From a virus: 64,000 bases of DNA. The position numbers and the translations under genes are program-made. The notes under the pieces are model-generated. The model was not told where the DNA came from. It did no database searches and was given only the letters and a program-made list of their open reading frames with translations. This document shows positions 46-21,485 of this stretch, one piece after another. How positions within the stretch are numbered: the stretch's first letter is position 1; every line of letters starts with the position of its first letter. The stretch spans positions 1 through 64,000 of IMG/VR virus record IMGVR_UViG_3300048088_000336. One strand, written 5' to 3'.

Positions 46-1806
46 GTGGCCCGTCGTCGTCTTCTCCCGGCTCTACGCCAGGCGTTCACTAGCGCGTCGA
101 ACTCCGGGGACCTCGACACCCGCATCGTGTCCGGCCCGTCCGGGTATGTGGTGCCCGGTCAGCCCTACCCGGTGGACTGGTCCGTGGACCGGGCGGTGCG
201 TGAGGGCTACTCGTGGAACCCCTACATTTTCCGGTGCGTCGAGTTCGTCGCCGCCAACGAACGCGCCCGCCGCATGGTGCTCCGCGCTGATGACCCCGAC
301 ACCGGGCCCATCATCGAAGCCGACACACAATCCCGGGAGCAACGCCGGGTCCTGCGCGTCCTAAACCGTCGGGCGAATGAGTGGGAGATCGCCCAAGTGT
401 GGCGGCACCGATTGACCGCCCAGTTCATGCTGTCATCCCGTGGGGTGTTCGTTGAGGCTGTCCGTACCCGCTCCGGTGGTATCCACTCCGTTTACCTACT
501 GGACCCCGATCGGGTCCTGCCCGTCCCCGGTCGCCGAAAAAAAGACCCGAATGACCCGAATGAGCGCGGTGTCGTCGTACCCATCGAATCGTTTCGGGTG
601 GAGACCGCTGTAGCCAACGGCGCCCCCCACTGGGATTGGCGTCCCCCGTTCGACCCTGATGCCACCGCCGAAACCCAGCCATCGGGCATCGTGTGGTTGC
701 GTTCCCCGCACCCCACCATGTTCGAGCGGGGAATGAGCCCCGTGGAGGCGGCGGGACTGTCCGCTGACCTCGACAGATACGCCAGATTGTATAATCGGCG
801 TTTCATGATGGAAGACGGTCGCCCCGGTGGGGTCCTCGCCATCAAGGGCGACCTCGACCCTGCTTATGAGGAGATCCTCGCCAACCGGTTCCGGGGCGGA
901 CCGGATGTCGCGAACTCCCGCACCACCGTCATCCAAGCCGACGACATGGCTTGGACCGACACGTCAGGAACCCCGCGTGACACCCAGTGGGGTGACACGA
1001 TGGATCGGACGAAACGCGAGATCTGTGTCGCGTTCGGATTACCCGAATCGGTGGTGTCCGATTCGTCGGGGGAAACGTTCGACAACTCCGATGCTGATTA
1101 CGCGAAAGCGTGGGAGCATTGCATGTTGCCGCTTTTCCGGTTGCTTGACGGGCAATTGGATGTGATCTCCCCCGGTGGTTATGACGACGACACGTTCCTC
1201 AACCATGACGTGTCCGACGTGTGGGTGCTGGGGCGGCACAAACGCGCCGAGGAAGACCGCGCGGCCGCCGACCTGGACCGGGGCACCATCTCGATCGACG
1301 AGTACCGGGAGATTTGTGGCCGGGACCCGTGGAATGTGCCCGCGACCCGCGTCCTGTGGATCCCGGCCGCTCGGTTGGCTGTCGACGACGGGGAGGCCGC
1401 GCACGACGGGGACGCTCAGGCCGCGTCCACCGCACCGATCGGCAACGGCCAGTTGGGTGCGGCTGGAATGTCCGGGGGTGCTGGTGCGATGGGTGGTGCT
1501 GGGGTTCCCCCCGCGTTGCCGCCCGGGTTCGGGGTGGACCCCGATGCGGACCTCGACGGCGCCGGTCAGGGCACGGGCTCCGTTCCGATCCCCGGCGCAC
1601 CCGGCGTGCCAGTACCGGGGGCGGCCGTACCGGGACCCATGCCGCGCCCAGCGCGCCCCCCAGCGATCGGTGGTGGTGGCGGGTTCGGTCCGCCGAGCCA
1701 GCGTGCTGAAGCCCAGCAGGGCCGGATCGTGCCCGGTGGTGGTTTGACGCAGGTCAAGAGTGCGGAGGGTGAGCAGAGCGGGGGGCGACCTCCCGCTCGC
1801 CGCTGA
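46..1806 (+). CDS. Phage portal protein (HK97 family) with Pro/Gly-rich C-terminal extension
   Basis: NPYIFRCVEFVA, PGGVLAIKG, REICVAFGLP and GTISIDEYRE match portal motifs; GGAGG at 36-40 favours GTG 46 over 40. Confidence 0.9.
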   Translation: MARRRLLPALRQAFTSASNSGDLDTRIVSGPSGYVVPGQPYPVDWSVDRAVREGYSWNPYIFRCVEFVAANERARRMVLRADDPDTGPIIEADTQSREQRRVLRVLNRRANEWEIAQVWRHRLTAQFMLSSRGVFVEAVRTRSGGIHSVYLLDPDRVLPVPGRRKKDPNDPNERGVVVPIESFRVETAVANGAPHWDWRPPFDPDATAETQPSGIVWLRSPHPTMFERGMSPVEAAGLSADLDRYARLYNRRFMMEDGRPGGVLAIKGDLDPAYEEILANRFRGGPDVANSRTTVIQADDMAWTDTSGTPRDTQWGDTMDRTKREICVAFGLPESVVSDSSGETFDNSDADYAKAWEHCMLPLFRLLDGQLDVISPGGYDDDTFLNHDVSDVWVLGRHKRAEEDRAAADLDRGTISIDEYREICGRDPWNVPATRVLWIPAARLAVDDGEAAHDGDAQAASTAPIGNGQLGAAGMSGGAGAMGGAGVPPALPPGFGVDPDADLDGAGQGTGSVPIPGAPGVPVPGAAVPGPMPRPARPPAIGGGGGFGPPSQRAEAQQGRIVPGGGLTQVKSAEGEQSGGRPPARR

Positions 1807-3139
1807 CGAGCTTCCCGACCTGGATCCGGCGCAGCTCATGGTGTTCGAGGCACCCCCGGACCCGCCAGCGGGCCCGATCCGGGACGCACTCGCGGATGAC
1901 GGGTCGGCCCGGATCGACCGGGCGGTGGCCCTGATGGATGCGGCGATCAGCGGGTACAACGAACGCTTGGCCAGTGTCGTCGAGGCCCGGATGCGCAGCC
2001 CGAAGACCCGTAGGGGCACCCGCTTCTGGACCCAGGCATCACCCGATGGGGTGAAGTCCGTATTTTTCCGAGGGGTAACCGACTCTTCTGCACATATAAG
2101 CCCCGTAGGGGTCGAGCTAAAAACCCTCGACGCGTCCTACGTCCTCCCGGAGCGCACCGTCGACGAACTGGCTGACGTCGTCCGCCCCGTGTGCCTGCGC
2201 ATCGTCGCTGATGCCTCCGGCAGTGTCGCCAAGGCACTCAAACGCCCCAACACTGGTCTGGCGGCGTTCGACTGGTCCGACATTGCCGCCACTGTTGATG
2301 ACGCCGTGAAACGCATGCTGGAGGTCAACGAACGCCACGCCCGCGACATCAGGGGCGAGATCCTCCGCGCCGACTCCGACGCCGAGTCCCTGTCGGTGGC
2401 GATCGACCGGGTCACCGAAGCCACCCGGCGCGGTGGCCGATGGCTACTGCTGGCCGGGCGCACCCTGGCCACCGCGCTCGCCGGGGACGCCGCACTGGGT
2501 GCCGCCCGCGCTCTGGGGGTGACTCACACGCAGTGGTTGACCCGCCACGATGACCGGGTGCGGGAAACGCACCGGAAGGCTGATGGGCAGCAGCGGCCGG
2601 TGGGAACAAAGTTTCAAGTCGGCGCCTTTCGCCTGCGGTTCCCCGCCGACCCCGAAGTCCTCCCCGAGGGTGCGCGGGAGGTGTACGGATGCCGCTGCTC
2701 ACTACTGTTCGCCCCACCGTCCCCGCAGCGCGTCAAAGCGGTCGCGTTGGCCACCCGGGGCACCCCGACCGCCGCGAGGGGGCTACTCCGTGCCGCAGCA
2801 GGCGACGACAACCCAGCATTGGTGCTCGGAGCACCAGAACTGGGTGCAGGCATGTCCATTCCAGCAGTGCCAGTGCCCCACGATGTTGTTGGCTACCGGG
2901 CGCTCGGCGCGGCGATCCCGGTTGCGCCTGGTCAACAAATCTCGTGGCCGGGACCACTCGCGTTAGCTTTGGCGCCCCCGGTGGTGGCCGGTGCGGCCGT
3001 GCTGGCGGTGGTGATCCCAGCGGGCGCGATCGTGGGGGTTGCGGGTGGGGCGGCGGTACTAGCTGCGGGTGTGGTGCTGTCAGTAGCGTCGGTGAGCGCT
3101 GGTCAGGTGGTGGCTACACCGGTGGTTCCTGCCGCTTAG
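1760..3139 (+). CDS. Head morphogenesis protein (MuF/SPP1 gp7-like) with a degenerate ADP-ribosyltransferase-like C-terminus
   Basis: WLTRHDDRVRETH...FPADP...GCRC MuF signature directly after the portal; start uncertain. Confidence 0.85.
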   Translation: MRRVSRAGGDLPLAADELPDLDPAQLMVFEAPPDPPAGPIRDALADDGSARIDRAVALMDAAISGYNERLASVVEARMRSPKTRRGTRFWTQASPDGVKSVFFRGVTDSSAHISPVGVELKTLDASYVLPERTVDELADVVRPVCLRIVADASGSVAKALKRPNTGLAAFDWSDIAATVDDAVKRMLEVNERHARDIRGEILRADSDAESLSVAIDRVTEATRRGGRWLLLAGRTLATALAGDAALGAARALGVTHTQWLTRHDDRVRETHRKADGQQRPVGTKFQVGAFRLRFPADPEVLPEGAREVYGCRCSLLFAPPSPQRVKAVALATRGTPTAARGLLRAAAGDDNPALVLGAPELGAGMSIPAVPVPHDVVGYRALGAAIPVAPGQQISWPGPLALALAPPVVAGAAVLAVVIPAGAIVGVAGGAAVLAAGVVLSVASVSAGQVVATPVVPAA

Positions 3140-3608
3140 CCCTCAGACTGGCGCGGTGTTCCTGCGCCCGCTGTTCCGCGTCACGCTTCTGGGAGATCAG
3201 GCGGTTGTGGACATGGCTCATTCCGTAGAGGACGCGGGCGGCGATGGTTTCGACCGCCCCGTAGTCTCCGATGGAGCCGTCGAGTAGGTCGTTGATCGCG
3301 TAGGTGACGACGGTTGCCTGCACGATCGGTGCCCAGCGGGCGAGCAGGTCTAAGAACTCCGGCAGGGAGTCCACGCGCAGGATGGGCCAGACGTTGAAGT
3401 GGTCGTTGATGTCGATTAGGTAGGACTCGGTGCCGTCGGCGTGGCGTCTGCGCCAGGTTTTGAGCCACATGGGGCCGCTTACGCTGCCGATCTCGGTGTG
3501 CCCTTCCCAGCCTTGTGACTTGAGGTATTCATCCTGGTCGAGGTCGGTGTTGTCTGCCCAGTTCGCGCAGACGTCGTATGGCTCCCATTGGCCGTTGATC
3601 AGGCGCAT
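3114..3608 (-). CDS. Hypothetical protein
   Basis: Globular-looking 164 aa; SD GAGGGG and upstream TACACT/GTTCCG motif. Confidence 0.75.
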   Translation of the reverse strand: MRLINGQWEPYDVCANWADNTDLDQDEYLKSQGWEGHTEIGSVSGPMWLKTWRRRHADGTESYLIDINDHFNVWPILRVDSLPEFLDLLARWAPIVQATVVTYAINDLLDGSIGDYGAVETIAARVLYGMSHVHNRLISQKRDAEQRAQEHRASLRAKRQEPPV

Positions 3609-3711
3609 GGTCGGTCCCCTCGTGTGGTGTGGCCGGAACTGGTGGCGTCGAGTGTATGCCCGACTAGTCGTGTCGCCGGTGGTCGTGACCTGGGCCGGTT
3701 ACAGTGCGGCC

Positions 3712-3952: not shown

Positions 3953-4264
3953 CTACTCCGTTGAGCTGATACCGGGCATGGTCGGCGGGTAGTCGTGGTG
4001 GGCGACGCTGGCGGCGACGGCCACGGCGAACGTGAGGGCCAGGGTGGTCGCGGCGAGCGCCAGGTAGCTCAGGATCAGTCCGGCGACGGCGAGCCCGTTT
4101 CCGCCTTCCCCGGTGGCGCGGATCTCTTTGCGGGCCAGGTGGCCGAGGACGATTCCGGCTGGCCAGAAAACGAACGCGAAGACCAGGGACAGGATCGCGA
4201 GGGTGTTGGTGCGAGGCGCCGGGGCCGGTAGCGGGGCCGGTGCGGTGGTGACGGGTGTGGTCAT
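3953..4264 (-). CDS. DUF4190-family membrane protein
   Basis: TNTLAILSLVFAF..PAGIVLGHLARKEI..GEGGNGLAVAGLILSY pattern. Confidence 0.85.
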   Translation of the reverse strand: MTTPVTTAPAPLPAPAPRTNTLAILSLVFAFVFWPAGIVLGHLARKEIRATGEGGNGLAVAGLILSYLALAATTLALTFAVAVAASVAHHDYPPTMPGISSTE

Positions 4265-4333
4265 TGGTGTGCCTTTCGGTCGGTCGGAACGGTTACGTCG
4301 ACTACATCGAACTGTTGGGCGTGCGCGTTACAG

Positions 4334-4375
4334 TTGTCTTCCTAGCGCGCACCCACTAGAGTTAGGGGTGTTCCG
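4334..4375 (+). promoter_or_regulatory. Sigma70-like promoter TTGTCT-N17-TAGAGT followed by N7-GTTCCG
   Basis: -35 at 4334-4339, -10 at 4357-4362, GTTCCG at 4370-4375, upstream of the DUF932 gene. Confidence 0.65.
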
Positions 4376-4397
4376 AGCCACCCGACAAGGGAGCCAC

Positions 4398-5348
4398 ATG
4401 ACCACAGCACTCGCCACCCGCCCCAGCGCCACCGCACTCCTCGGCGCCGACGTCCGACACACCACCAGCGCCGCCCAAGCACTCCAAGTCGCGGGCCTAT
4501 CCGGCCTCAACGTCGTCAAAGTCCCCGTCGTCACCGCCACCCACGGCGTCCTCGTCGAAAGCCGCTACGCCCTGGAAACCCACCAGCGCCCCCTGCCTGG
4601 GGTCACCGTCGGGGAAGACTTCGAGGTCGTCCAGTACGAGGAGAACGCCGACCTACTCGATGCGCTCGCCCGCCGCCTCGGCGCCAGCTTCGCCAACGCC
4701 GGGGCCCTCACCCTGTCCCGCGCGTTCGTCGCCCTAGAACTCCCCGAAGCCGTCATGGTCGGCCCCGACAAACTCATGATCACCGTCGCGGCGTTCATGG
4801 CCCACGGCAGCGCATCCAACTATCTCGTCCCCGGCGCCTGCCGCGTGATGTGCGCCAACCAACAAGACCAGATGCTCCGCGAAGGCCGCGACTACAAAAT
4901 CACCATCCGGCACACCGCCAGCGCGCACGAACGCACCGCCGCCGCCGAAGACACCCTCATGGCCACCGTCGCCAGCATGGATCACCTCGCCATCGAAGGC
5001 GAGATCATGCTCGACCAGCCCGTCACCGTCACCCAGTTCCGGGACATCGCCGACGCCCTCTACCCCCTGGGTGGGGACTCCAAATCAGCGCAAACCATCT
5101 ACGACCGGCGCATCGAAGTTCTCACCAGTATCTTCACCGGACCCACCAACACCAACATCGCCGGGACCGCGTGGGCCGCCTACCAAACCATCGCCGAGTA
5201 CGTGCAGTGGGCGATGAGTGTGCGCGGTGCCAGCGACACCGAACTCGACCACGCGCGGGCCCGCCGCGCGCTGACCTCCGGGACCGCGCACGCCACCCAG
5301 GTCAAAGCCTTCAACGTGATCCGTGACATGTTCGACCTGGCCCTCTAA
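4398..5348 (+). CDS. DUF932-family phage/plasmid protein
   Basis: SAAQALQVAGL, GEDFEVVQYEE, RVMCANQ, IRHTASA, GTAWAAYQTIAEY; SD AAGGGAG before ATG 4398. Confidence 0.8.
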   Translation: MTTALATRPSATALLGADVRHTTSAAQALQVAGLSGLNVVKVPVVTATHGVLVESRYALETHQRPLPGVTVGEDFEVVQYEENADLLDALARRLGASFANAGALTLSRAFVALELPEAVMVGPDKLMITVAAFMAHGSASNYLVPGACRVMCANQQDQMLREGRDYKITIRHTASAHERTAAAEDTLMATVASMDHLAIEGEIMLDQPVTVTQFRDIADALYPLGGDSKSAQTIYDRRIEVLTSIFTGPTNTNIAGTAWAAYQTIAEYVQWAMSVRGASDTELDHARARRALTSGTAHATQVKAFNVIRDMFDLAL

Positions 5349-5373
5349 CTCCACAGACTCCCAGGGCACGCTG

Positions 5374-5590
5374 CCGGTCGGCAGAGGGACCGCCGACCGG
5401 GGCCGCAAGCCCAATCGCCGGGTGGGAGCCGGTGTGAGACCTGGTGGGTACGGGACCCAGTGAGTACCAGGGGCAGCGCGCTTAGGTGCGGGGAAGGCAC
5501 CGACCGGCTGGGCGCGACCTTGATCAGTTGCCCCTGGTCACCAGGAAACGGGACGGTCCCCCTGCCTAGTGGCACTGGGCAGGGTGACCG
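5374..5590 (+). ncRNA. Candidate structured RNA in the 280-bp intergenic gap (strand uncertain)
   Basis: Nested stems 5374-82/5392-5400, 5440-46/5539-45, 5466-77/5527-38, 5477-85/5508-16 and 5554-70/5574-90. Confidence 0.35.
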
Positions 5591-5627
5591 CCCCCATCGT
5601 TCCGGCCACAATTTTCGAGGAGAGCCC

Positions 5628-5993
5628 ATGGCTAGGCGCAAGGCGGGGCACCGTCAGGTCACCCCCTTCTCCGACCTGCCCAACTGGTTGGCGATCAAAG
5701 TCACCGCCCAACGGCAAGGGTGGGCGGCGGGGCAACTCCGCTCCTGTGTCCACGATCCGAAACCTGGGCGCGCACCTGTGCACATGTGTGCATGGAAACC
5801 CGAACTGGTGACCTGCGCTGACTGCACGCACCTGTTCGTTGTCGTCGAATCCGGGGACCGCTGTGACTGCTGTGAGCGGGTCACCGCAGGCACCCCCGAG
5901 GATCACACCGAAGGGTTCCGCATGCGCGTCGCCGACGTCACGTACTGGGCTGTGGTGTGCCCGGTGTGCAAGAAGGACATGACCCGGGCCTAG
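5628..5993 (+). CDS. Cys-rich hypothetical protein, likely zinc-binding
   Basis: CADC, CDCC, CPVC; SD GAGGAG before ATG 5628. Confidence 0.75.
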   Translation: MARRKAGHRQVTPFSDLPNWLAIKVTAQRQGWAAGQLRSCVHDPKPGRAPVHMCAWKPELVTCADCTHLFVVVESGDRCDCCERVTAGTPEDHTEGFRMRVADVTYWAVVCPVCKKDMTRA

Positions 5994-6198
5994 AGCCGCG
6001 AAAGCCCCGCAGATGCGCTACGCGCACGGGGCGAGGCTTCCCGGGTTCCGGCCGCACCGAGGAGACGACACGGAGGTCTTACTGCCGCCATTGCTTACGA
6101 CAACCTCTACGCGTCAACCGATGTTGCGAGGCCGAGTGTAGCACTAGGGGTCCGACTGTTTCCAGATCGCGCGGCGTGCCCCCTGACCACCCCTGGCC

Positions 6199-6477
6199 GT
6201 GGCTGACACCATGCGTCGCGTGCAGCTCTGTATCGGTGACCGCGTCCACTATCGGTCACATGGCAGCCCGATCCTGATCGACGGCACCCAAATCCATGCC
6301 CCCAAGTGTCGTCCCGCTGACGTGATCGAACACCTGGGCGCCGAGGTGTGCATCCTGTTCGTCAAAAACCCGTCCGGGGTTTTCTTCGACGACTGCCGTC
6401 ATGACGAGACCCGTTGGCCTGATGCGCCCCCCGGTGAAGGCGGAACCTGGCACTACCCGTGTGACGTCAGCCCGTGA
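6199..6477 (+). CDS. Hypothetical phage protein
   Basis: IGDRVHYRSHGSP...CRPADV...GGTWHYP; GTGA overlap with the next gene. Confidence 0.75.
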   Translation: MADTMRRVQLCIGDRVHYRSHGSPILIDGTQIHAPKCRPADVIEHLGAEVCILFVKNPSGVFFDDCRHDETRWPDAPPGEGGTWHYPCDVSP

Positions 6478-6836
6478 CCGCCGAGTGCGCGCCCGGGTGC
6501 GGCGCCTGCTGCGAGACGGTGGTGATGGTCGTGCCCCCGGAGGACATGGAGGGACCGTCGGGGCCGTTCGCGCGGGAGCACTGGCACGTGTTCGAGAAGC
6601 TGGACAATCCCGAGTCGCCGACCGGGATCGAATACCACCTGCGGTGTGACCAGTTCGACCCGCATACTCGACGCTGTGGGGCGTACGCGGTGCGGCCACC
6701 GATCTGCGCGAACTACCCCCACTACGGGTCACCCATGAAGCCCGGCCACTCGAAGGCCGACGCGATCCCCCTGGTGTGCGCGTTCCAAGCTGATGTGCGC
6801 CGGGTTCTGCCCCTGGTGGCGATCAATGGCCGGTGA
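6474..6836 (+). CDS. YkgJ-family CxxCxxCC cysteine-cluster protein
   Basis: CAPGCGACC...C..FDPHTRRCGAYAVRPPICANYP. Confidence 0.85.
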   Translation: MTAECAPGCGACCETVVMVVPPEDMEGPSGPFAREHWHVFEKLDNPESPTGIEYHLRCDQFDPHTRRCGAYAVRPPICANYPHYGSPMKPGHSKADAIPLVCAFQADVRRVLPLVAINGR

Positions 6837-8724
6837 ACCCGAGGTGGTCGCTACTGAGGCGCCGTCACCGACGGATGACCCGGCCACCGGGCACACCGGG
6901 GGCATGCTGGCCCTGGTCCCCGACAATGTCGACGAACTCGCCGTCGAGGGTGGCCTGCCACCGGGGGAACTGCACCTGACGTTGATCTACCTGGGTGATG
7001 ATGTGACCACCTGGCCACCCGAGCAGACCGCGCACCTCAAAGCCCTGATCCAAGCCAGCGGACCGGGGTTGGATCCGGTATCGGCCCGCATCATGGGTCA
7101 CGCCCTGTTCAACCCCGATGGGGGTGCTGCCGGGGACAAGAATCCGTGCGTCGTCTACCTGGTGTCCGACACGCCCGACCTGGAACCCCTGCACAAATGG
7201 GCCACCTGGACGACGACGACGGGCGAGAATTACCCGACCCCGCCACCGCAGCACACCCCGTTCATTCCGCACATCACAGCGGGGGAGGACACCGGGGTCG
7301 ACGAGTTGTCCTACACCGGGCCGGTGCGGTTCTCGACACTGCGCCTGGCGTTGGGTGATGAGGTGACCGACGTCCCGTTGGGCGGCGGCGATCAGGAGGC
7401 TGACGTGCCCGGAGTTCAAGCGAAGTCGATCACGTTTACGCCCCCGAAAGCGGTCCGGGACGCCGCGTGGGACCTCGACGGGCCGGTCGCTGCTGATGTT
7501 GTCGAGGGCAAGGCCCTGGACGGTAATGGTTTGGCGTGGGTCGCGGCGCACTGTGGGCAGGCCGGTCGGGACTGGGCGCGGGACATGCTCGGTCGCGTCG
7601 AGGTCAAAGCCGACATGAACATGGGCCGGTACGCGGGCGGGGAGCACCCGAAGCTGGACAGTATCGAGGCCCTGCACAAGGCGGTGGAGGAGCACGGAAA
7701 CTGCCCCCCGGAGGACCGTCCGGCGCGGGTCCGCAAACTGCGGGCGCGGGCGAAGGAACTCGGTGCCAGCGCACACACCTACTCCCGGATCGACACCCTG
7801 GAGGGGGCGAGCACCGACGGGTCCGGGATCAAGGATGTCGACGACGGTGATGTGGAGTTCAAGTCGTGGGCGCCCGGCAACTCGGAACCTTCACCGATCC
7901 CGCACCTGGCCGCGTTGGGGCAGGCGATTACCGCGCATCCGAAGGTGCGGGACTCGCACAAGGCCAAGCACAAGAAGCATCTGGCTGCTGAGGCGCAGCG
8001 CCTGGGCGCGGGACCGGACGTGCACGCGAAGATCGGGTACCTGGAACCGCACTCGTTCTTCAATCAAACGAAATCCTTGGACGACTACGATGTCGAGTTC
8101 AAGGTCACGTCACCGGCGCCGGGGGCGTCGAGGTTGCGGGAGTACTGGGCGCGTAACCCGAAGGGCCGCGCGAAGTGGCGTCCCGGTAGTGGTGGGGATT
8201 TCAAGCGCCTGCGCCGTCATCTGGCGAAGTACGTGCACAATCCGAAGATCCTTAATGGGTTGACGGCGAACATTCACAAGATGGCCACCGGTGTGTGGCC
8301 TGGTAAAAACGCGCACACGATCCGGGAGAAGCCCGGTAAACCACTCACCTACGGAATCAAATCACTGGTCGCGTGGGAATCGGTGGAGCAGAAGACCGCC
8401 GCCACCGATGTGGACATGGCGGAGTTGTTCGCCGGGATCGAGGACTGGGGGCGCGAGTTCGTCACCGACGACGCGGAGGCCTACTTGGCCGCGCTGGCCG
8501 AAATCCAGGGCGACACCCCCGACGATGACATCGAAGCCCCCAGTGATGTGGAGCGCACCGCCGCGCTGGCCGCGCTCGGCGCGAAACTGGTTACCGACCC
8601 GGACCCGCAGGTTGAGGTGTCCGACAATGTCCAGGACACCGCACCGGACACCCCGGACATCGAACCGGGTGACCTGGCCAGCTTGTTCACTGATGCCCCC
8701 CCGGCTGTTGAGGCCCCAGCGTGA
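6826..8724 (+). CDS. Multi-domain head-associated protein: N-terminal 2H phosphoesterase (2'-5' RNA ligase/Acb1-like fold), small modules, acidic tail
   Basis: Two HxT motifs (LHLTL near 6973, PHITA near 7270); two similar helical modules; W..NPKGRAKWRPG..GDFKRL..HL..ATGVWPG module; GTGA overlap with the giant. Confidence 0.8.
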   Translation: MAGEPEVVATEAPSPTDDPATGHTGGMLALVPDNVDELAVEGGLPPGELHLTLIYLGDDVTTWPPEQTAHLKALIQASGPGLDPVSARIMGHALFNPDGGAAGDKNPCVVYLVSDTPDLEPLHKWATWTTTTGENYPTPPPQHTPFIPHITAGEDTGVDELSYTGPVRFSTLRLALGDEVTDVPLGGGDQEADVPGVQAKSITFTPPKAVRDAAWDLDGPVAADVVEGKALDGNGLAWVAAHCGQAGRDWARDMLGRVEVKADMNMGRYAGGEHPKLDSIEALHKAVEEHGNCPPEDRPARVRKLRARAKELGASAHTYSRIDTLEGASTDGSGIKDVDDGDVEFKSWAPGNSEPSPIPHLAALGQAITAHPKVRDSHKAKHKKHLAAEAQRLGAGPDVHAKIGYLEPHSFFNQTKSLDDYDVEFKVTSPAPGASRLREYWARNPKGRAKWRPGSGGDFKRLRRHLAKYVHNPKILNGLTANIHKMATGVWPGKNAHTIREKPGKPLTYGIKSLVAWESVEQKTAATDVDMAELFAGIEDWGREFVTDDAEAYLAALAEIQGDTPDDDIEAPSDVERTAALAALGAKLVTDPDPQVEVSDNVQDTAPDTPDIEPGDLASLFTDAPPAVEAPA

Positions 8725-14700: not shown

Positions 14701-17700
14701 ACGGCAGTTTCACCCAGGCCTCCCAAGGCGCGGCCGTACCGTTTGCGGTACCGGAGAAGCAGGCTGAGGAGTTGCGTGGCCTGATCGGCATGCGCGACAC
14801 CCTGTCGACCCTGCTCACCGCCGAATCCCAGTCCGTGTCCAACTCCCCGGAGATCCGGGAACTGCGCAAGACACTGAACGACCAGTACGACGCCTACGTC
14901 AAACGCTACGGGCCGATTAACCGCTACACCCTGACCAAGTCGGGGGCCCGCAACGCTCCCGGTCAGGGCGGGTTCCGGCGTGACCCCATGTCGGCGATCG
15001 TGCGGGCCCTGGAGATCTACAACCCGGAGACCGGCAAAGCTGTTAAGACCGACATCTTCACCAAACGGTCCGTGTCCCCCCGGGAGATCCCCACCCACGC
15101 CGACAACCCCGAGGACGCACTGGCGTTGTCCCTGGACACCTACGGGGAAGTCAACCTCGGTGAGATCGCGAAAATGTTGCACACCGATGAGGCCACCGCC
15201 CGCAGACGTCTCGGTGACCTCATCTTCGAGCAGCCACCGCTGACCGATGACGAACTCGACAAGTCGTGGACCGCGCACCAGGAAGACCACGGGGGTATCC
15301 CTGACCAGGACATCGCGGCTGGGACCGTGGACCTGTCCTCGGTCGGCGAGTCGGTCCGGGCTGAGGGCAATCTCGAACCGGCCGCCGCCTACCTGTCCGG
15401 CAACGTGCGCCGCAAACTGGCCGCCGCCGAAGCCGCCGCCGCGCACGATCCCCGGTTCCAAACCAACGTCGACGCGTTGAAGAAAGTCATCCCCGCTGAT
15501 CTGGGGGTCGATGAGGTCGACGGCCGGTTGGGTGCCGCGTGGATCCCCGCTGATGACGTCAAAACGTTCATGATCGACCTGTTGCACGGTGGCGACAACC
15601 GGTACAACCCCGTGCAGGTGTCCACCTCCGGGGGTGGGATCTGGACCGTCGTCGGGGGCGATCACGGCAACGTCGCCACCGAACAGTGGGGCACGAAACG
15701 GAAGTCCGCTGGTGAACTGATCGCCGCCATGCTGGAGCAGAAACCGATCCGTGTAGTGGACACGATCGACGGGAAGTCCTACCCGAACCTGGAGGAAACC
15801 CTCGCGGCGCAGGCGAAGGCCGACGAGATCTCCGAACGTTTCTCCGAATGGTTGTTCGAGGACTCCGCGCGCACCAAACGTCTCCTGGCCGCCTACAACA
15901 ATCAGTTCAACGCGGTCCGGTTGCGGTCCTACGATGGTGTGGATCGGGTGTTCCCGGGGATGACGTCGAGCGGGTGGAAACCCCGCGCGCATCAGGTGGC
16001 GGCCGTCAACCGGATCGTCTCGGAACCGTGTGCGCTGCTCGCCCACGTGGTGGGTGCGGGGAAGACCGCTGAGATGGCGATGGGTGCCGCCGAACTCAAA
16101 CGCCTGAGGATGGCGCGCAAACCCGCGATCGTGGTGCCGTCGCACATGCTGGAGCAGTTCACCCGCGAGTACCTCCAAATCTATCCGAGGGCGAAGATCC
16201 TGGCCGCTGGCACGGAGGACCTGGACGGGGATAAGCGCCGGGAGTTCGTGGCGCGCGCCGCTACGGGGCAGTGGGATTGCGTCATCCTCACCAAGGATGC
16301 GATGCAACTCATTCCCATGAGTCAAGACGCGCAGAAAGCCTACATTGATCGTGAAATGGCCACGATGCGCGCCCAGTTGGAGGCCGCGCAGGGCAGTGGT
16401 GGGGACGCCGCGCATCAAGCGACCGTGAAGAAAATGGAAAAGGCCGTCATCAAGGCTGAGGAGGCCCTGAAGGCGAAACTGGAGAAGACGAAAGACGCGG
16501 GGGTGTCTTTCGAGCAGACCGGCATCGACTACCTGTTCGTCGATGAGGCCCACCAGTACTCGAACCTGCGGACCGTGTCCAACATACAGGGCGCGGGGGC
16601 GTCCGGGTCGGGTATCGCCACCGACCTGCACATGAAGATCGAGCACCTGCGGGCCAACAATGAGTCGGGCCGGGTGGCGACGTTCGCTACCGGCACACCG
16701 ATTCGTAACACCGTGACACAGGCATACATTATGCAACGGTTCATGCGCCCCGACCTGCTGAAAGAAGCGGGGGTGCATTCGTTCGACCAGTGGGCCGCCA
16801 CGTTCGGGCAAACCGTTGACGAGATGGAACTCAAACCGGAGGGCACGGGGTTCCGGCAGACCACCCGGTTCGCGAAGTTCCGCAATGTGCCTGAACTGCT
16901 GCGCCTGTTTCAGATTTTCGCGGACGTCAAGACCGCTGAGGACCTCAACCTGCCCACCCCGGACCTGGCCGGTGGGTCGGTGGACAATGTGGTTGTCCCG
17001 AGCACCGATGAGCTGCGGGAGACCATGGCGGAGTTGGCGCACCGCGCCGACCAGTACCGGGCGGGGTCCCCGGAGAAGCGCACCAACGCGGCCGGTACCG
17101 GTGAAGTCGACGACATGATGCTGCTGATCAGCATGGATGGTCGCAAAGCCGCGATGCGCCAGTCGGACAAACTGGACATGGCGGCGGAGAAGATCGCGGA
17201 CATCTGGGGAAAGAACAAGAACAAGCCCATCCCGAAAGACTTGGATGACCCCACCGCTGGGGATGACCCCCCACCCGGTGGGATGCAAATCGTGTTCTGT
17301 GACATGTTCACCCCCAAGGGTGGCGCCAAGAGTGACGTCGAGCAGCGAACCGAGTACGACGACGGGGACAACTTCGACGCCTACGCTGCCTTGCGGGCGA
17401 AACTGGCGGACCGGGGCATGGATCCGAAACGGATCCGGTTCATGCACGAGGCCAAGAATGACCGTCAGAAGGCCGAACTGTTCGCCGCCGCACGCAATGG
17501 TGGCCTGGATGTTCTCGTCGGCTCCACGGAGAAGATGGGGGTCGGTACGAACGTCCAGAGACGCGCGGTGGCCCTGCACCATTTGGATGCCCCGTGGCGC
17601 CCCTCGGATCTTGAGCAGCGTGACGGCCGGATCATGCGCCAAGGCAATGCCAACGACGAGGTCTCAATCCACCGGTATGTCACCGAGGGCTCATTCGACG

Positions 17701-19781
17701 CCTACATGTGGCAGACCCTGGAACGCAAAAAGAAGTTCATCGACCAGATCATGGGCGGCAGCCTCGACCAGCGGGAGATCGAGGACGTTGGTGAGACGGC
17801 CCTGTCCTACGCTGAGGTCAAGGCGCTGGCGACAGGCAACCCCCTGCTGTTGCAGAAGGCCACCGTCGACACCGCGATCGGGAAACTGTCCCGCCTGGAG
17901 CGCACCCACAACCGCACCCAAACCAACCTCCGGCGTGACGTCGTCGCCTTCCGGGCCAACGCGGAAGCCTCCGACGCCTACGTCAAAAAAATGGACGCGG
18001 CCGTCAAAGCCCGCACTGACATCACGGGCGACAACTTCGCGATGACCGTGCACGGCACCACCACCCGCGACCGGGGTGAGGCCGCGTCCATGCTCAAAGC
18101 CGCTGTCGAGGACGTCATCCGCAACGACTACGGGTACGGGAAGCGGGCCAAGCCCGTCGCGGAGTTCGGTGGACACAAACTGATGGCCACCGTCGAGGAT
18201 CATTACGACCGCAATGGGGCCCGCCGCCGTGGCGTGACCTTGACCTGGGACGGGGTGCCCGGGGGTGCGAGTGGTGGTAACGCGACCGCCGCGTCGATCA
18301 GCTACCAGCAGCTCGCCAGTGGTGGCATCGGGCAGGGCACCCTGGCGACGCTAGCGCATTCCCTGCACTCCTTCGAGTCGCACCGCGACATCTCCGCTGA
18401 TCACGCCACCCGTTTGCGGTCCGAAGCGGATGTGATGGAAGCCCGGGTGGGCACCGAGTTCCCGCACGCGGGCGCACTGAAAACCGCCCGGGATGAGTCC
18501 GCCCGGCTGAAGGCCACAATGGAGGCATCCGGGATCCGGGAGGACGCCGGGCCCGGTGAGTCGGACGCGGCGAAGAACTTGGCCACCGCGCGGACGAAAG
18601 CCGCTGGGCAGGCCGCCCGCATGGGCCGCTCCGGTGGAAACGCGGCCACCACGCTCAAGAGGTTCGGGAACTCCACCGCCACCCCCGGCGCGGTGGCCTC
18701 CCCCAACGGCGCGGTCGGCGCGTACATGCACAACGGGGACTTCAAAGTGTTCCTGACCGATGACGGGGTCGATGTCCGGGACCTGGCCGGGATCTCCTCC
18801 GATGACCTCAAGGGTGTGGTCAAGGACCCGCAGGGGTTGGTGGATGACCTGGCGAAACTGGACCTTCCCTTCGATGAGGGCGCGCGCTCCCTGTATCGGC
18901 GTTGGAACGGGGACTACTCCTACAGCCCACCGGACTACTCGAAGTCCTACGAGGAACGGGAAGCGATCGCTCAAGCCAAACGGGACAAGCTCAAAGCTGG
19001 GGAGACGGCCGACAAGAACGCGATCAAGGCTGTGTTCGCGCGGCACCTCACGGACGCACCTGTTGAACCGGAACTGACCGGGGTCGACGCCGCGAAACGG
19101 GCCGCTGCCCGCGCGGCGGAAAACGACCGCATCGGGGACCTGGCGAAGAAGCGACTGAAGCGGTTCGCGAAAGCCAGTAAACGCATCCCCCACTACGCGT
19201 CCCCCGACGGGAAGATCGGGGCCGTCACCGACACCGATGGCGGGCTGGAGTTCTTCGCCACCGGCAACGGCATGCTGCTCAACGCCCCCGGTTCGGTGGG
19301 GCCCGTCGATGACCCGCAGGCCGTGGTCGATGAGATCGCCGCACTCGGTGTGCCCCTGGGTGATTCAGAAGTCCGGTATGAGCGGTGGGGGCGTGGGGAC
19401 GGGCAGCAAAATGAGGACGTGACCGCGATCCGGGGCATCCTCACCCGGCATGCTGACCTCATGGGTGAGAAGTCGGCGATCATCGGGGCGTGGGAGTTGC
19501 TGCGCGCGCAGCGCCTCGACATTGAAGTGAAGGCCCGCGCGGACCGGGCGGCTGGGGAGGTCACCCCCACCCCGGACCCGGAACTGGAACCGTTCACGGT
19601 GCTCGTCGCCGATGACGTTCGCTACACGATGGACGCATCCGGGACCCTGCAACGTCTCATGCCGTGCCCGGCGTGCGGTCAGGAGATGATGGTGCCCGCG
19701 TTCGGGGAGTCCGAGACACCACCGTGCCCCTCGTGCGGTGCGGTCCCCACTGTGGACAAGCGCCGGGCACCGGTGGGTTGA
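8721..19781 (+). CDS. 3686-aa giant: HK97-type prohead protease fused to a DarB-like N6-adenine methyltransferase, an SNF2/SF2 helicase and a C-terminal zinc ribbon
   Basis: Protease DSVGDVIVPG, SHNW, FSIGY, LYEWSQVLHGAHPLA (about 8850-9315); MTase ANLAAL..EQSVLARWAGWGG, VLEPGSGSG (13899), GNVPFG (14088); helicase AHVVGAGKT (16041), DEAH (16542), ATGTP, GVGTNVQ, QRDGRIMRQGN (17616); CPAC..CPSC at the end. Confidence 0.9.
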   Translation: MTTTFPDDIEVSGDVPDDLTALEWKSLPAGETSSPLTGVIDHNDADGTITALVAVTGVKDSVGDVIVPGSADKAVKRLKPKGVMSHNWGDRVSRLIWHKELMPGDSMLPKQTPQGDPWPANAGGLLIKAKYNLDKQSGRDAYADAKFYGADECFSIGYKVRPGGSRMRGATRYLHDYDLYEWSQVLHGAHPLATLTGVKSLADTVEAPWYDGTRSGDIEGDTALPDGVETKVRVVRDADFWHLPIGTPIKPGMVPHGLNRPPTEQEIHATTADAGDDNGLHGAPDAVATPGMPGAPAPGGLGMPPMPDMALPIPGPKDGDAPTGDPDAAVALLRTRVGEIEKLNTPAARTASAALTPFLVPGAPVRASEDGQLVAVHTGDAWRFADTANGGVMQVTLPGTLPQPNVDMVLHELAGVGIPWDSVDARRKRWENPSQLQADKATVAGIFARAGTPPTTTPPGIGGAGMGTPPPPGVPGAPGAGQGAPGAPPATPGMPNASVGAPPSIPATPAPAPNVPTAPPTPTVPATPPVSPKKFPRGSIKGHGIAPGDRIRVHGHPRGTLEGTVESGKNGHSIVHDDGSKTWLGGTGSRHHVEKLGKAADQPPKLATASAAPPASKPAPERKLAFARFDRIENVHDLPGAIRSAILKPDTLDNPARRQALAVALHSLTEPTAPNKPPAKAHVPDDVDPAALADELDGLAQEIEDRGKGRIAITPAHRGSGRTVVADLRALAAGIRTPAASAPESAKPPAPVVPEPYKPTGNINAPHELTDEQLATEAAHAATRHARARASGVPKTSVEHHDSKLANTVFQDEIRRRAVGGESGVKPAPKPGPPAAPETPAVPDKTGEVPEDAPDTTVPLPQEAVDSADRIRAEALGIIDGPDGQEEVTPEVADRQDRVEGYLVAGEAALADKTDGQLSETRKDLTDELALQDELNRRDTQRRKESAAARSSRSSSTADPVRSGDTPGATGDGTPEDTGPKLRPGFAGAAEDLGDALNAKPRDDETVKAAADRFAKMLRRHGDSTSFDAVRTAIGDDIHAAIASGDLKAGMLFTAAGGVREQRRVARNEGAKKRRLAKRLDRDRIKALIGSVDAEVRARKDRGSGAAAPKPSPAPSVAASPKTGQGITATAQHNADGGVHYLVTHPDGSYTTARYNSTGPRRTHASTVDRGPGLKPNSGGRYITSIHSSEESADQSHDAFPNVPHIVTPIEHIGETGKAETPVVPEASGPRADAEQAIRDGDRIALVDALKAMGDTGPRETAMRLLSLSEDDAITELDDHPGKRETANRADRHAAAQVANAAGDSAALTAALTGEHRKPDNALDSRDAAAARERAAAKRAAVKPAVVVADGPSRRAEFDASTAEDFPPNTPVRLFQDWDREHARPDLASDVTAVRRARNGYVTVRESKGTTVDVFPRQLEKRDQGAQSPQKDGGDDAQRASDTSRSVVPEVPAADLRGDSRQTEVLPGPGRPSPGADHPGRGPVGGPGPTGGDIPGQTGAPDSGTTRRDGTGDEGLPGSPTAPELDGQSPAEPAEPGPVDASREDGPVGGRDGGLRERERGTGSTEPGDEAAGTADTAPAPEPDSADGVTAEQPEADTGQVDAIPDTGESFHPSSADDFAPAGKRAKLDANLAALRVLRQLQTEHRSATPEEQSVLARWAGWGGLPEVFDDKKTAYAKERDELRGLLSGGEWNEAKRNTLNAHYTSPVVVQALWKAMGDLGFDGGRVLEPGSGSGTFIGYAPEGADMVGVELDSTTAAISRALYPHATVRNESFADTRLPAGSFDATIGNVPFGDFALRDRVHNPNRAESIHNHFILKSLALTKPGGIVTVLTSRYTLDGENPRARKKMAEMGDLLGAVRLPTGSHSKTSGTDVIEDALIFRRREPGADPLTPQDWINSSKRDIDGIEIPVNDYFTAHPDQVLGDEHAEKGQYGSGSLIVTGDKAMPELPAALARITDGANTAGATASARMEGLADFTAPDDTRHDGHIAAHDDGSFTQASQGAAVPFAVPEKQAEELRGLIGMRDTLSTLLTAESQSVSNSPEIRELRKTLNDQYDAYVKRYGPINRYTLTKSGARNAPGQGGFRRDPMSAIVRALEIYNPETGKAVKTDIFTKRSVSPREIPTHADNPEDALALSLDTYGEVNLGEIAKMLHTDEATARRRLGDLIFEQPPLTDDELDKSWTAHQEDHGGIPDQDIAAGTVDLSSVGESVRAEGNLEPAAAYLSGNVRRKLAAAEAAAAHDPRFQTNVDALKKVIPADLGVDEVDGRLGAAWIPADDVKTFMIDLLHGGDNRYNPVQVSTSGGGIWTVVGGDHGNVATEQWGTKRKSAGELIAAMLEQKPIRVVDTIDGKSYPNLEETLAAQAKADEISERFSEWLFEDSARTKRLLAAYNNQFNAVRLRSYDGVDRVFPGMTSSGWKPRAHQVAAVNRIVSEPCALLAHVVGAGKTAEMAMGAAELKRLRMARKPAIVVPSHMLEQFTREYLQIYPRAKILAAGTEDLDGDKRREFVARAATGQWDCVILTKDAMQLIPMSQDAQKAYIDREMATMRAQLEAAQGSGGDAAHQATVKKMEKAVIKAEEALKAKLEKTKDAGVSFEQTGIDYLFVDEAHQYSNLRTVSNIQGAGASGSGIATDLHMKIEHLRANNESGRVATFATGTPIRNTVTQAYIMQRFMRPDLLKEAGVHSFDQWAATFGQTVDEMELKPEGTGFRQTTRFAKFRNVPELLRLFQIFADVKTAEDLNLPTPDLAGGSVDNVVVPSTDELRETMAELAHRADQYRAGSPEKRTNAAGTGEVDDMMLLISMDGRKAAMRQSDKLDMAAEKIADIWGKNKNKPIPKDLDDPTAGDDPPPGGMQIVFCDMFTPKGGAKSDVEQRTEYDDGDNFDAYAALRAKLADRGMDPKRIRFMHEAKNDRQKAELFAAARNGGLDVLVGSTEKMGVGTNVQRRAVALHHLDAPWRPSDLEQRDGRIMRQGNANDEVSIHRYVTEGSFDAYMWQTLERKKKFIDQIMGGSLDQREIEDVGETALSYAEVKALATGNPLLLQKATVDTAIGKLSRLERTHNRTQTNLRRDVVAFRANAEASDAYVKKMDAAVKARTDITGDNFAMTVHGTTTRDRGEAASMLKAAVEDVIRNDYGYGKRAKPVAEFGGHKLMATVEDHYDRNGARRRGVTLTWDGVPGGASGGNATAASISYQQLASGGIGQGTLATLAHSLHSFESHRDISADHATRLRSEADVMEARVGTEFPHAGALKTARDESARLKATMEASGIREDAGPGESDAAKNLATARTKAAGQAARMGRSGGNAATTLKRFGNSTATPGAVASPNGAVGAYMHNGDFKVFLTDDGVDVRDLAGISSDDLKGVVKDPQGLVDDLAKLDLPFDEGARSLYRRWNGDYSYSPPDYSKSYEEREAIAQAKRDKLKAGETADKNAIKAVFARHLTDAPVEPELTGVDAAKRAAARAAENDRIGDLAKKRLKRFAKASKRIPHYASPDGKIGAVTDTDGGLEFFATGNGMLLNAPGSVGPVDDPQAVVDEIAALGVPLGDSEVRYERWGRGDGQQNEDVTAIRGILTRHADLMGEKSAIIGAWELLRAQRLDIEVKARADRAAGEVTPTPDPELEPFTVLVADDVRYTMDASGTLQRLMPCPACGQEMMVPAFGESETPPCPSCGAVPTVDKRRAPVG
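13027..13488 (+). CDS. Nested overlapping gene (+1 frame inside the giant), TnpV-like helical protein
   Basis: GGAGG 13017-21, 5 nt, then ATG 13027; 153 aa MPNALATQAEAWYQKYQPQTYAGIVDKPKFFQDLADRAQEQI..AGPDQPGETYRDKLGRLTAAQHDATELVMRDFL; the giant's frame is low-complexity over the same span. Confidence 0.75.
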   Translation: MPNALATQAEAWYQKYQPQTYAGIVDKPKFFQDLADRAQEQITQVADRLAGPDQPGETYRDKLGRLTAAQHDATELVMRDFLEAPPPPNWTDSPLPSPPSPDPSMLPEKTDPWGDAMADFGNASAELDQQNRVTRQRELPILPPRPSRTVPTA

Positions 19782-19787: not shown

Positions 19788-19844
19788 GACAGCCCCCGGA
19801 GGGGGGACACCGGGGGCTGTCGGGCTGGGGTTACTCGCCCCAGC
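19788..19844 (+). terminator. Double hairpin downstream of the giant (terminator or processing signal)
   Basis: GACAGCCCCCGG 19788-99 pairs with CCGGGGGCTGTC 19810-21; GCTGGGG 19824-30 pairs with CCCCAGC 19838-44. Confidence 0.55.
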
Positions 19845-20129
19845 GGGGGTGATTTCACTGTAGCGGCGTGTCGGGCTCGCGGCCAGTCGTGAACGAAAGA
19901 CGCCCCCAATGTGGATCGGGGGCGCTTCCGGCTGGACTCACTACTCCACCGACGGAGATAGTGGTTCCCACCGTACGCGGCGTGGCGCGCGCCCCGCCAG
20001 CCGAATCGGTGATCTACTCCGCTCCACGCGCCTGGTGCTGACCGGTGCGAGTCATTCCGGGCACGCTGCCGGGGGCCTCGCGCTGCCCAGCTCGTGCTCA
20101 CTCACACCGAGCACACAGGAGGGGCGGAA

Positions 20130-21485
20130 GTGCCCGACACACTGACCCACCACGACAAAGATTTGATTGATCGTGGGCGGGCTGAGGTCAAGAGCCTCAA
20201 CACCAAACTGGATGAGATCACCAAGTCTGGGTGGCTGGACGGCGACGGCAACATGCACGTCGAACCGGGTGCCCTCGCGGAGTTCAAGTCGACCCTGGCC
20301 GCCGCTGAGGAAGCGCACGGCATCGTCGCCGCCCTCGAACGCAAAGGCGCCCTCGATGCGTGGCTGGACGCCCCGGCGACGGATTCCCCGGCCGCGTTGG
20401 CCGCTGGGCAGGCCGGTGGCGGCAGTCAGCTCATGCGCCCAGCGGAGTACAAGTCTTTGGGGCAGCGGTTCATTGAGTCGACCGAGTTCAAGGGCCACCG
20501 TGACTCCGGGTTCATGGACTCCGCTTTCGTTGTCGAAGACCAGGAGATCACTTACGGGGCGCAGTTCAAGGACGTGCACTCCGGGTCGATCGGCACCGTC
20601 ACCCACCCCGGTTTCGGCACGGTTCAGCGCGCACCGATGGTGTCGGCGCCGATGCTCACCTGGCGGGTGCGTGATCTTTTCCCGCAGATGAACACCAACT
20701 CGGTGATGATTGAGTTCATTGAGGAGTTGGGGTTCGTCGACGCGGGCGACAATGCCGCCGCGATGGTGCCCGAACGTGAGGGCACACCACCTACGGACAC
20801 GTTCGGTCTGAAGCCGAAGTCAACGATTCACTTCAACATCAAGACCACGCCGATTCGGACCCTGGCGCACTGGGTTCCCGCGTCCCGCAACGTGCTCGAT
20901 GACGAACCGCAGTTGCGGGGAATCATCGACACGCGCCTGCTGTACGGCCTGCGCCTGGTCGAGGACCAGCAGTTGCTGCTGGGTGACGGCACTGGACAGA
21001 ACCTGCTCGGCATTTTCAACACGCCGGGTATCCAATTGTTCCCCTCCGGCACCTACCACGCGCCCACCAACGAAACGTATGTCGACGCCATTCGCCGGGG
21101 TGCGACTCGCGTCATGCTGGCACAATACGACCCGACCGGCGTAGTTGTTCATCCTTACGATTGGGAAAGGATGGAGCTGACCAAGGACACCCAGGGCCGG
21201 TACCTGGTTGCCGGGTCGGTCACTTCCGGTGCCGAGAAGCGTTTGTGGCAGATGCCCGTGGTCGCCACCCCCGCGTGCCCGGAGGGCACGGCCCTGATTG
21301 GTGCGTTCGGTTTGGGCGCGCAAGTTTTCGACCGGATGCAATCCAATATCCGCACCGCTGACCAGCACGCGGACTTCTTCATTCGTAACGCGATCGTGGT
21401 CCTGGCGGAGGAGCGGCTCGGTTTGGCCGTGTACCGGCCCGCGTCGATGGTGAAGGTCAACCTGGCCGCCGCGATCGCCGCCTGA
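20130..21485 (+). CDS. Major capsid protein (HK97 fold) with N-terminal scaffolding/delta region
   Basis: TLAHWVPASRNVLDD, EDQQLLLGDGTGQNLLGI, VVHPYDW..KDTQGRYL, FIRNAIVVLAEERLGLAVYRP; SD AGGAGG. Confidence 0.95.
   Translation: MPDTLTHHDKDLIDRGRAEVKSLNTKLDEITKSGWLDGDGNMHVEPGALAEFKSTLAAAEEAHGIVAALERKGALDAWLDAPATDSPAALAAGQAGGGSQLMRPAEYKSLGQRFIESTEFKGHRDSGFMDSAFVVEDQEITYGAQFKDVHSGSIGTVTHPGFGTVQRAPMVSAPMLTWRVRDLFPQMNTNSVMIEFIEELGFVDAGDNAAAMVPEREGTPPTDTFGLKPKSTIHFNIKTTPIRTLAHWVPASRNVLDDEPQLRGIIDTRLLYGLRLVEDQQLLLGDGTGQNLLGIFNTPGIQLFPSGTYHAPTNETYVDAIRRGATRVMLAQYDPTGVVVHPYDWERMELTKDTQGRYLVAGSVTSGAEKRLWQMPVVATPACPEGTALIGAFGLGAQVFDRMQSNIRTADQHADFFIRNAIVVLAEERLGLAVYRPASMVKVNLAAAIAA

Follow-up and report, generated by a model that had tools for sequence, protein, structure and literature searches.

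The head module of the soil-type actinobacterial phage represented by IMG/VR record IMGVR_UViG_3300048088_000336 carries a recurrent Lys motif, phi-[E/Q]-x-K (phi, a hydrophobic residue) followed by S, A, T or V and often by L or W. We consider it, with a probability of roughly 0.6 and on the evidence of sequence statistics, conservation and one predicted structure, to be the substrate signature of a Lys-specific HK97/S78-type prohead protease that the module itself encodes at the start of a giant open reading frame (ORF). The DNA examined here (the window) comprises 64,000 nt, positions 1–64,000 of the record; the whole record is 79,462 bp long, with an estimated completeness of 66%, and the G+C content is ~67%. 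The head module lies on the + strand from position 1 to ~21.5 kb and encodes a portal (PF04860), a MuF-like protein, a DUF932/TIGR03299 protein, a 2H protein of 643 amino acids (aa), the giant ORF of 3,686 aa and a 463-aa capsid protein with the HK97 fold. At 46–50% capsid identity, its closest cultured relatives are actinobacterial myoviruses: Cantare, a Brevibacterium phage, and the Bendigovirus group of Gordonia phages (GMA6, DalanDe). In these the layout is the same: portal(-MuF) comes first, a 2H ‘RNA ligase’ and then several large ORFs follow, and a ‘capsid maturation protease’ of 417 aa (Cantare) or 1,633 aa (DalanDe) precedes the capsid gene. Giant ORFs directly upstream of the capsid gene also occur in closer, uncultured relatives (L003–L009 and L024–L027). 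The features on which the reading turns are as follows.

6793–8724, + strand: 2H-phosphoesterase ‘polyvalent’ protein, 643 aa, with the 2H domain at aa ~29–199 followed by five mostly helical modules.
8721–19781, + strand: giant ORF, 3,686 aa, consisting of the protease, ~1,300 aa of unknown function, a DarB-like region and a C-terminal tail with a Zn-ribbon.
8796–9317, + strand: HK97-family prohead protease domain, giant aa 26–199, assigned from phrog_80, a below-cut-off match to TIGR01543 and alignment with HK97 gp4.
19638–19778, + strand: conserved Zn-ribbon (CPxCG...CPSCG) at the very C-terminus of the giant, aa ~3640–3686.
20094–20570, + strand: capsid scaffold (delta) domain, aa 1–159, with AEVK33-S, AEFK65-S, AEYK120-SLG, TEFK133-G and AQFK159-D.
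20571–21485, + strand: mature HK97-fold capsid domain, PF05065 (E = 6e-40) and TIGR01554 (E = 6e-34), without motif copies.

The first-pass annotation of the window had listed 18 Lys motifs at the domain boundaries of all head proteins and proposed that the internal proteins are made as polyproteins, which are cut into separate effectors during head maturation. All 18 are in frame, each at its exact Lys codon, and three copies of the same form were absent from the list, namely AEFK65-S (nt 20286) and TEFK133-G (nt 20490) in the capsid protein and VEGK240-A (nt 7510) in the 2H protein. We counted the strict pattern [AVILMT]-[EQ]-x-K against within-protein shuffles, which control for composition. 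Six copies were observed in capsid aa 1–162 versus 0.40 expected (P < 5e-4, ~15-fold), six in aa 206–643 of the 2H protein versus 0.98 (P < 5e-4, ~6-fold) and two in aa 1–260 of the giant versus 0.29 (P = 0.04), with none in the mature capsid domain (aa 163–463) or in the 2H domain. The 67 non-head proteins of the 79-kb record hold 13 copies versus 12.8 expected, which is chance, and Fisher tests per Lys agree with the shuffle results. By both sets of counts the enrichment is genuine, although it is limited to the capsid scaffold, the last two-thirds of the 2H protein and, weakly, the giant N-terminus. An excess in head over non-head proteins was thus borne out for the scaffold and the 2H protein, and not for the giant interior, the portal or MuF. 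Because VEFK357 and VEFK437 of the 2H protein sit in tandem paralogous modules, they represent one event, leaving ~5 independent copies in that protein. The description of the surrounding sequence as otherwise Lys-poor does not hold for whole proteins, as Lys makes up 5.2% of the 2H protein (33 residues) and 4.7% of the giant (174 residues), with most others at ~2–3%.

The same signal is present across the protease family. The clade numbers 1,637 representatives at E ≤ 1e-3 in the database searched, and the family test used 150 protease representatives with ≤50% mutual identity, covering 73,928 aa C-terminal to the protease domain. In this material phi[EQ]xK is enriched 2.25-fold (z = 17), K-S 1.7-fold (z = 10.6) and [EQ]xKS 4.9-fold (z = 23), the last rising to 6.9-fold over the 250 aa that directly follow the protease domain; at more than 250 aa from the domain, phi[EQ]xK is still enriched 1.7-fold (z = 6.2). 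The controls are flat (phi[EQ]xR 0.98, RS 1.07, reversed-charge pattern 0.82). With the Lys as P1, the family prefers E at P3 (2.0-fold), S at P1′ (2.2-fold), W, F or L at P2′ (2.7-, 2.1- and 1.8-fold) and hydrophobic residues at P2 and P4, and these preferences match VEFK-SW, LEWK-SL, AEVK-SL, AEYK-SL and TGVK-SL in the window. Judged from these sequences, the motif is a Lys-specific, family-wide signature of the segments attached to the protease. The protease is N-terminal in 111 of the 150 representatives; 25 of them have a length of at least 1,000 aa, and in 20 of these it is N-terminal. One representative of 800 aa, P0042, carries the protease (3–192), a 2H domain (217–383) and a homologue of the fourth module of the 2H protein (497–638) in one chain, and its DGVEVK500-V stands at the exact position of DVEFK437-V in the window’s 2H protein.

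Assignment of the protease rests on giant aa 40–206, which match phrog_80 ‘head maturation protease’ at E = 3e-17 (7.4e-19 in a record-wide search), the only match to this family in the record, and on a BLASTP match of the domain to HK97 gp4 (E = 3e-4); a profile search of the giant N-terminal alignment against PDB sequences returned nothing meaningful. In an alignment with HK97 gp4 and the proteases of Cantare, DalanDe, L008 and L009, His86 (MSH86N) falls on gp4 His65 (FFNH65), and Ser155 in CFSIGY matches Ser114 in GMSVGF of gp4, the Ser column being slightly offset in the automatic alignment. F154, S155, I156, G157 and Y158 are invariant in six relatives, and we regard His86 and Ser155 as a putative catalytic pair. 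LEWK25-S (nt 8793) stands at the N-terminal edge of the domain and TGVK199-S (nt 9315) at its C-terminal edge, followed by VETK231-V (nt 9411). K25 aligns with gp4 K6 (IVK6-T), and K199-S with gp4 K159-S (AMK159-S) at the end of the catalytic domain. The residue at K199 is Lys in 140 of the 145 alignable representatives (of 150), with Ser the commonest next residue, and the position of K25 reads [LIVM]-E-[YHFW]-K in most of the 58 representatives aligned that far. The protease gene adjoins the capsid gene, the giant ending at 19781 and the capsid protein starting at 20094, and the same arrangement is found in DalanDe, Cantare and L003–L009.

The strongest enrichment falls in the capsid scaffold. 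Pfam and TIGRFAM matches cover only aa 240–456 of the 463-aa protein, which is 38% identical to residues 134–378 of HK97 gp5; an HK97-fold profile is combined with an N-terminal extension of ~160 aa that contains K120-SLG and K159 and whose removal is predicted. E or Q occupies P3 for six of the nine Lys of the scaffold domain (Fisher p = 4e-5), and AEVK33-S, AEFK65, AEYK120-SLGQRF and xQFK159-D are conserved in L003–L008. Candidates for the final maturation site are K120, K133 and K159, and two lines of comparison point different ways: K120-SLGQ resembles HK97 FNK103-SLGS, which favors K120-SLG, whereas K159 equals HK97 K103 by spacing. The Cantare and DalanDe delta domains, which are unalignable to that of the window, are likewise richer in K-S and [EQ]xK than the tail proteins of the same phages (p 0.02 to 2e-6). 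In HK97 gp5 itself, K-S occurs at 4 of 13 Lys in the delta domain and at 0 of 10 in the mature part.

For the 2H protein, we built an AlphaFold2 model from 30 homologues (mean predicted local distance difference test score, pLDDT, of 71). Folded blocks are predicted at ~29–199 (the 2H fold), 213–270, 285–339, 358–418 and 443–512, with a weaker one at 543–598, separated by five linkers of pLDDT < 50 at 200–212 (nt 7390–7428), 271–284 (7603–7644), 340–357 (7810–7863), 419–442 (8047–8118) and 513–542 (8329–8418). All seven sites cited for this protein in the first-pass annotation (VQAK211, VEVK272, VEFK357, NQTK427, VEFK437, YGIK523 and VEQK534) lie in these predicted linkers, as had been proposed, and every one of the five linkers holds motif sites. 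All 30 homologues (46–72% identity) keep E-x-K at 272 and 437, and 29 keep it at 534; K523-S is found in 28, K427 in 23 and K211 in 15, and site 357 lies within an insertion whose seven carriers all keep the motif. Within linkers, P1 and P3 are more conserved than their neighbors (0.70 vs 0.48, p = 0.009). A set of 51 non-redundant 2H homologues contains 143 strict motifs versus 41.5 ± 6 in shuffles, although the homologues are related and the counts are not fully independent. The ~80-aa helical modules at aa 273–357 and 358–437 (7609–8103) form a tandem duplication (31% identity, E = 6e-8) in which both copies end in DxDVEFK, and the second copy is present in only 7–8 of the 30 homologues. 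In Foldseek comparisons (E 1e-5 to 6e-4), the model of the 2H domain itself (6877–7389) matches LigT-type 2′,3′/2′,5′ phosphoesterases as well as Acb1, an anti-CBASS nuclease of phages; a virion-delivered cyclic-nucleotide or RNA-end phosphodiesterase is plausible. The only match of the helical modules is an 82-position PHROG of unknown function; as they have no recognizable function, calling them ‘effectors’ is unsupported. With a 2H domain and five further modules, the protein belongs among the polyvalent proteins.

The giant behaves differently from the 2H protein. The region at aa ~1517–3290 (nt ~13269–18590) is a DarB-like methyltransferase-helicase, with matches to phrog_10089 ‘DarB-like antirestriction’ at E = 4e-123, 4e-162 and 6e-139 and Pfam matches to ResIII, SNF2, Helicase_C and an Eco57I-like methyltransferase. 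A single giant ORF is kept in relatives (3,581 aa stop-to-stop in L025 and 3,661 aa in L027). Having protease, methyltransferase, helicase and Zn-ribbon domains (at least two distinct domains in a virion module), the giant is a polyvalent protein as well; its inter-module linkers, unlike those of the 2H protein, are not all marked by motif sites. Near the C-terminus, IEVK3604-A (nt 19530) retains a conserved phi-E-phi-K in a region of low identity; together with a variable acidic linker it precedes the Zn-ribbon, which may be a capsid- or DNA-anchoring element. In the relative L009, a similar Zn-ribbon is N-terminal to the protease domain. A further listed motif, MGEK3584-S (codon 19470), was rejected as a site, as it falls in an insertion specific to the window and absent from relatives. 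The two longest low-complexity linkers, aa 449–521 (10065–10283) and aa 1433–1608 (13017–13544), are rich in Gly, Pro, Asp and Ala and free of Lys, and one Lys-free run extends over 192 aa although Lys accounts for 4.7% of the protein. Avoidance of protease sites could explain this, as could linker composition alone.

Placement of the giant’s motifs in linkers hence held for the terminal sites, which bracket the protease and precede the Zn-ribbon, and failed for MGEK3584-S. The proposal that the giant is a polyprotein cut into separate effectors was not supported. Its interior count is at chance level, the interior copies lie in conserved DarB-like regions (local identity of 0.66–0.97 to relatives) that are presumably folded, its longest linkers have no Lys and K3584 is unconserved; for these reasons we see no marking of separable effectors along the giant, which is probably freed as one piece. 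Conservation of the sites as a whole was similarly divided: homologues of the 2H protein show near-invariant E and K, and the capsid sites and the phi-E-phi-K3604 of the giant are kept, whereas MGEK3584 is not and the MuF segment containing K99 is deleted in L009.

We therefore favor the following sequence of events, each step of which is conditional. The capsid protein with its ~160-aa scaffold would assemble the prohead and take in the protease-DarB giant, the 2H protein and MuF, and the protease would then cut exposed sites inside it. The scaffold domain would be digested at K33, K65, K120 and perhaps K133 and K159, the protease would detach from its cargo at K199 and/or K231, and the C-terminal Zn-ribbon tail would be trimmed at K3604. 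Cutting of the 2H protein at its five linkers would set the 2H phosphoesterase free, along with four or five small helical modules, while the DarB-like cargo of ~3,370 aa would stay whole and presumably be ejected with the DNA, like DarB of phage P1. Packaging of the giant would be achieved by covalent fusion to the protease domain; we infer that the DarB-like region is packaged and would protect incoming DNA from restriction, because it is fused to a prohead protease and located in the head module. A clue as to how the 2H protein might enter is that 2H domains are fused to the protease in relatives (P0042), and a survey notes 2H fusions to portal and MuF (PMC5512222). MuF might also be trimmed at K121, and the portal tail at K586, although support for this is weak. 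A broader version, which we regard as possible rather than probable, is that a clade of HK97-type proteases uses a ‘cleavage code’, phi-E-x-K / S-phi, in linkers: cargo such as DarB-like giants, 2H proteins and helical cassettes would be loaded by fusion or association and released in the capsid, the modules and their terminal sites would shuffle as cassettes, and linkers that must survive would be Lys-free. Shuffling is suggested by the tandem duplication in the 2H protein and by the different module orders in P0042 and phrog_21406.

A number of observations weigh against a proteolytic role for the motif. The sites of HK97 itself lack E at P3, so the P3 rule is a new proposal of this work, and the P1′ preference is loose, since most homologues of the 2H protein have Arg at P1′ of site 272 and V, I or L at that of 437. 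The chance-level counts in the giant interior, the portal, MuF and the DUF932 protein count against it too, as does the invariant VEGK240-A within a folded 2H module. The match to TIGR01543 (HK97-family prohead protease; E = 2.5e-7, 30.9 bits) is below the cut-off of 59, and Pfam Peptidase_S78 (PF04586) has no match in the whole record. Stand-alone proteases conserve K25 and K199 as well, with the N-terminal motif at residues 4–7 in Cantare, and the two could for this reason be structural rather than cut sites; the AlphaFold2 model of giant aa 1–340, from an alignment of six sequences, has a mean pLDDT of 41.6 and permits no structural inference on K25, K199 or K231. Searches of the literature for proteomic or N-terminal data on Cantare, the Bendigovirus group or near relatives came back empty. 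In one alternative, the protease performs ordinary HK97-type digestion of the scaffold and of itself only, and the E-x-K elements of the 2H protein are capsid-targeting peptides that dock on the capsid interior, scaffold or portal, the protein being packaged uncut. We consider this unlikely. The classical scaffold and self substrates, namely the delta domains and the 250 aa next to the protease, do show the strongest enrichment, the residues at P1′ of 272 and 437 are not the family-preferred S, and P1 DarB is targeted by a short N-terminal peptide with no known cleavage (PMC9024508). Against it stand the same Lys-specific pattern (E at P3, K at P1, often S at P1′ and L or W at P2′) in 2H linkers exactly at module boundaries, its occurrence between protease, 2H domain and module in the fused P0042, its enrichment beyond 250 aa from the protease and the copying of the terminal DxDVEFK along with the duplicated module.

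It is very unlikely, in our estimate, that the motif is a by-product of a loose pattern, composition and shared ancestry, with Lys in amphipathic strand or helix contexts that have no common function. The original list does mix variants (TQVK, DGVK, YGIK, MGEK and NQTK), and conservation among close relatives (57–88% identity) is uninformative. Strict counts are at chance in the giant interior (aa 261–3400, six vs 4.9) and, with one copy each versus ~0.2–0.27, individually not significant in the portal, MuF and the DUF932 protein; the giant tail (aa 3401–3686, two vs 0.58) is not significant either. K3584 is unconserved, and VEGK240-A is invariant yet inside a folded module of the 2H protein. 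Against this stand the composition-controlled shuffles in two regions with non-head proteins at expectation, the unenriched Arg-for-Lys and reversed-charge controls of the 150-protein test, the replication of the signal in unalignable delta domains and the higher conservation of motif residues than of their linker neighbors. Another modification or covalent chemistry at the Lys in place of proteolysis, for example isopeptide cross-links among internal proteins or to the capsid, would agree with the motif's demand for Lys and not Arg, and HK97-fold capsids do cross-link through Lys (K169-N356 in HK97). This possibility is extremely improbable, as the motif is concentrated in the scaffold domain, which the HK97 family removes, with no copies in the mature domain; a partner Asn/Asp motif was not found, and cutting after Lys has a direct S78 precedent.

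The remaining genes of the head module lie upstream of the 2H gene.

1–1806, + strand: portal, open at its 5′ end at the contig start (PF04860, E = 2.5e-32).
1760–3139, + strand: MuF-like head protein (PF04233 and several PHROG head-morphogenesis families).
4113–5348, + strand: DUF932/TIGR03299 ‘phage/plasmid-like protein’, between the MuF and 2H genes.

In the portal, TQVK586-S (Lys codon 1756) lies 15 aa from the C-terminus, in a disordered tail rich in Gly and Pro, and QVK-S is kept in L024, L025 and L027 within this indel-rich tail. The candidate sites of MuF are DGVK99-S (nt 2054) and VELK121-T (nt 2120), and even L009, with 32% identity, retains GVE-x-K121-[TA]-L-D. As the motif counts in both proteins are at chance level, this conservation is suggestive only, and the claim that all head proteins carry the motif is too broad, the portal and MuF having single hits each. 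The portal end (1806) and the MuF start (1760) overlap by ~46 nt (within 1748–1806) in different frames, as they do in L024, and the two are one fused gene in Cantare and DalanDe; a programmed frameshift making a portal-MuF fusion is conceivable. The DUF932/TIGR03299 family is typical of the leading regions of conjugative elements, and its presence in a head module suggests another delivered protein. TQVK398-A of this protein was rejected as a site, since it lies in a conserved helical region and the Lys is Arg in L024. In the ~1.1 kb at 5349–6470, the codon-usage model found no confident gene; the candidate ORFs 5460–5993 and 5957–6277 have Arg/Cys/Pro-rich translations and are only partly conserved in relatives. 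Just upstream of the 2H gene, a Cys-rich ORF of 120 aa (6474–6836; CxxCxxCC-like start) shows 77% identity in L024 and has no PHROG match.

If the favored reading is true, the virion contents of a large and mostly uncultured group of actinobacterial phages, i.e., the delivered anti-defense enzymes and the form they take, could become predictable from sequence. Consensus-site processing of head-internal proteins would extend from the T4/phiKZ protease family to HK97/S78, and a simple design rule would suggest itself for bringing foreign proteins into HK97-type capsids and releasing them there, namely fusion to the protease domain together with phi-E-x-K-S-L.

Among known systems, the closest is that of HK97 gp4/gp5 and T5 pb11 (MEROPS S78). 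In this family, to our knowledge, only cleavage of the capsid, of the portal and of the protease itself is documented; HK97 gp5 is cut at K103-S104, and the T5 portal is also trimmed by the T5 protease. A passage in PMC13517437, citing Duda 2013 and Zivanovic 2014, states that the S78 proteases of HK97 and T5 cut after Lys. The window shares with these phages the gene order portal...protease-capsid and an HK97-fold capsid bearing a scaffold domain at its N-terminus, and with HK97 also the K-S-L-G at a candidate maturation site, the multiple K-S in the scaffold and the C-terminal region of the protease, and the alignment of K199 with gp4 K159. Unlike in HK97, where the protease stands alone with ~225 aa, here it forms the first 200 aa of a chain of 3,686 aa, its predicted specificity adds E/Q at P3 and a separate multi-module 2H protein is among the putative substrates. 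The prohead proteases of T4 (gp21) and phiKZ/SPN3US process internal and ejection proteins at L/I-x-E and S/A/G-x-E. As in those phages, a short consensus would mark many head and internal proteins to be cut within the prohead, and propeptides and targeting sequences would be removed and cargo retained; the protease is of HK97/S78 type and predicted to cut after Lys, in contrast to the S77-type enzymes, which cut after Glu.

The DarB-like region at giant aa ~1517–3290 has its counterpart in the Dar system of P1, whose DarB is a 250-kDa methyltransferase-helicase present at ~40 copies per virion and encoded beside the portal and protease genes; it is loaded by a 30-aa N-terminal targeting peptide and helper proteins, and the P1 capsid is cut after Glu, at E120-S121 (PMC9024508). 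P1 DarB is not fused to a protease, whereas loading in the window would be by covalent fusion. Polyvalent proteins, as surveyed by Iyer, Burroughs, Anand, de Souza and Aravind in 2017, are multi-domain proteins of virion modules with DarB-like helicase-methylase, 2H, MuF and peptidase domains that were proposed to be packaged and sometimes proteolytically processed (PMC5512222). The same survey describes assemblin-like peptidases ‘always at the C termini’, presumably for virion processing, and gives no cleavage motif (PMC5512222). In the window the protease is N-terminal, and a specific linker motif can be defined; what is new is a defined Lys-specific linker motif for a clade of HK97-type proteases that delimits modules in a separate head protein.

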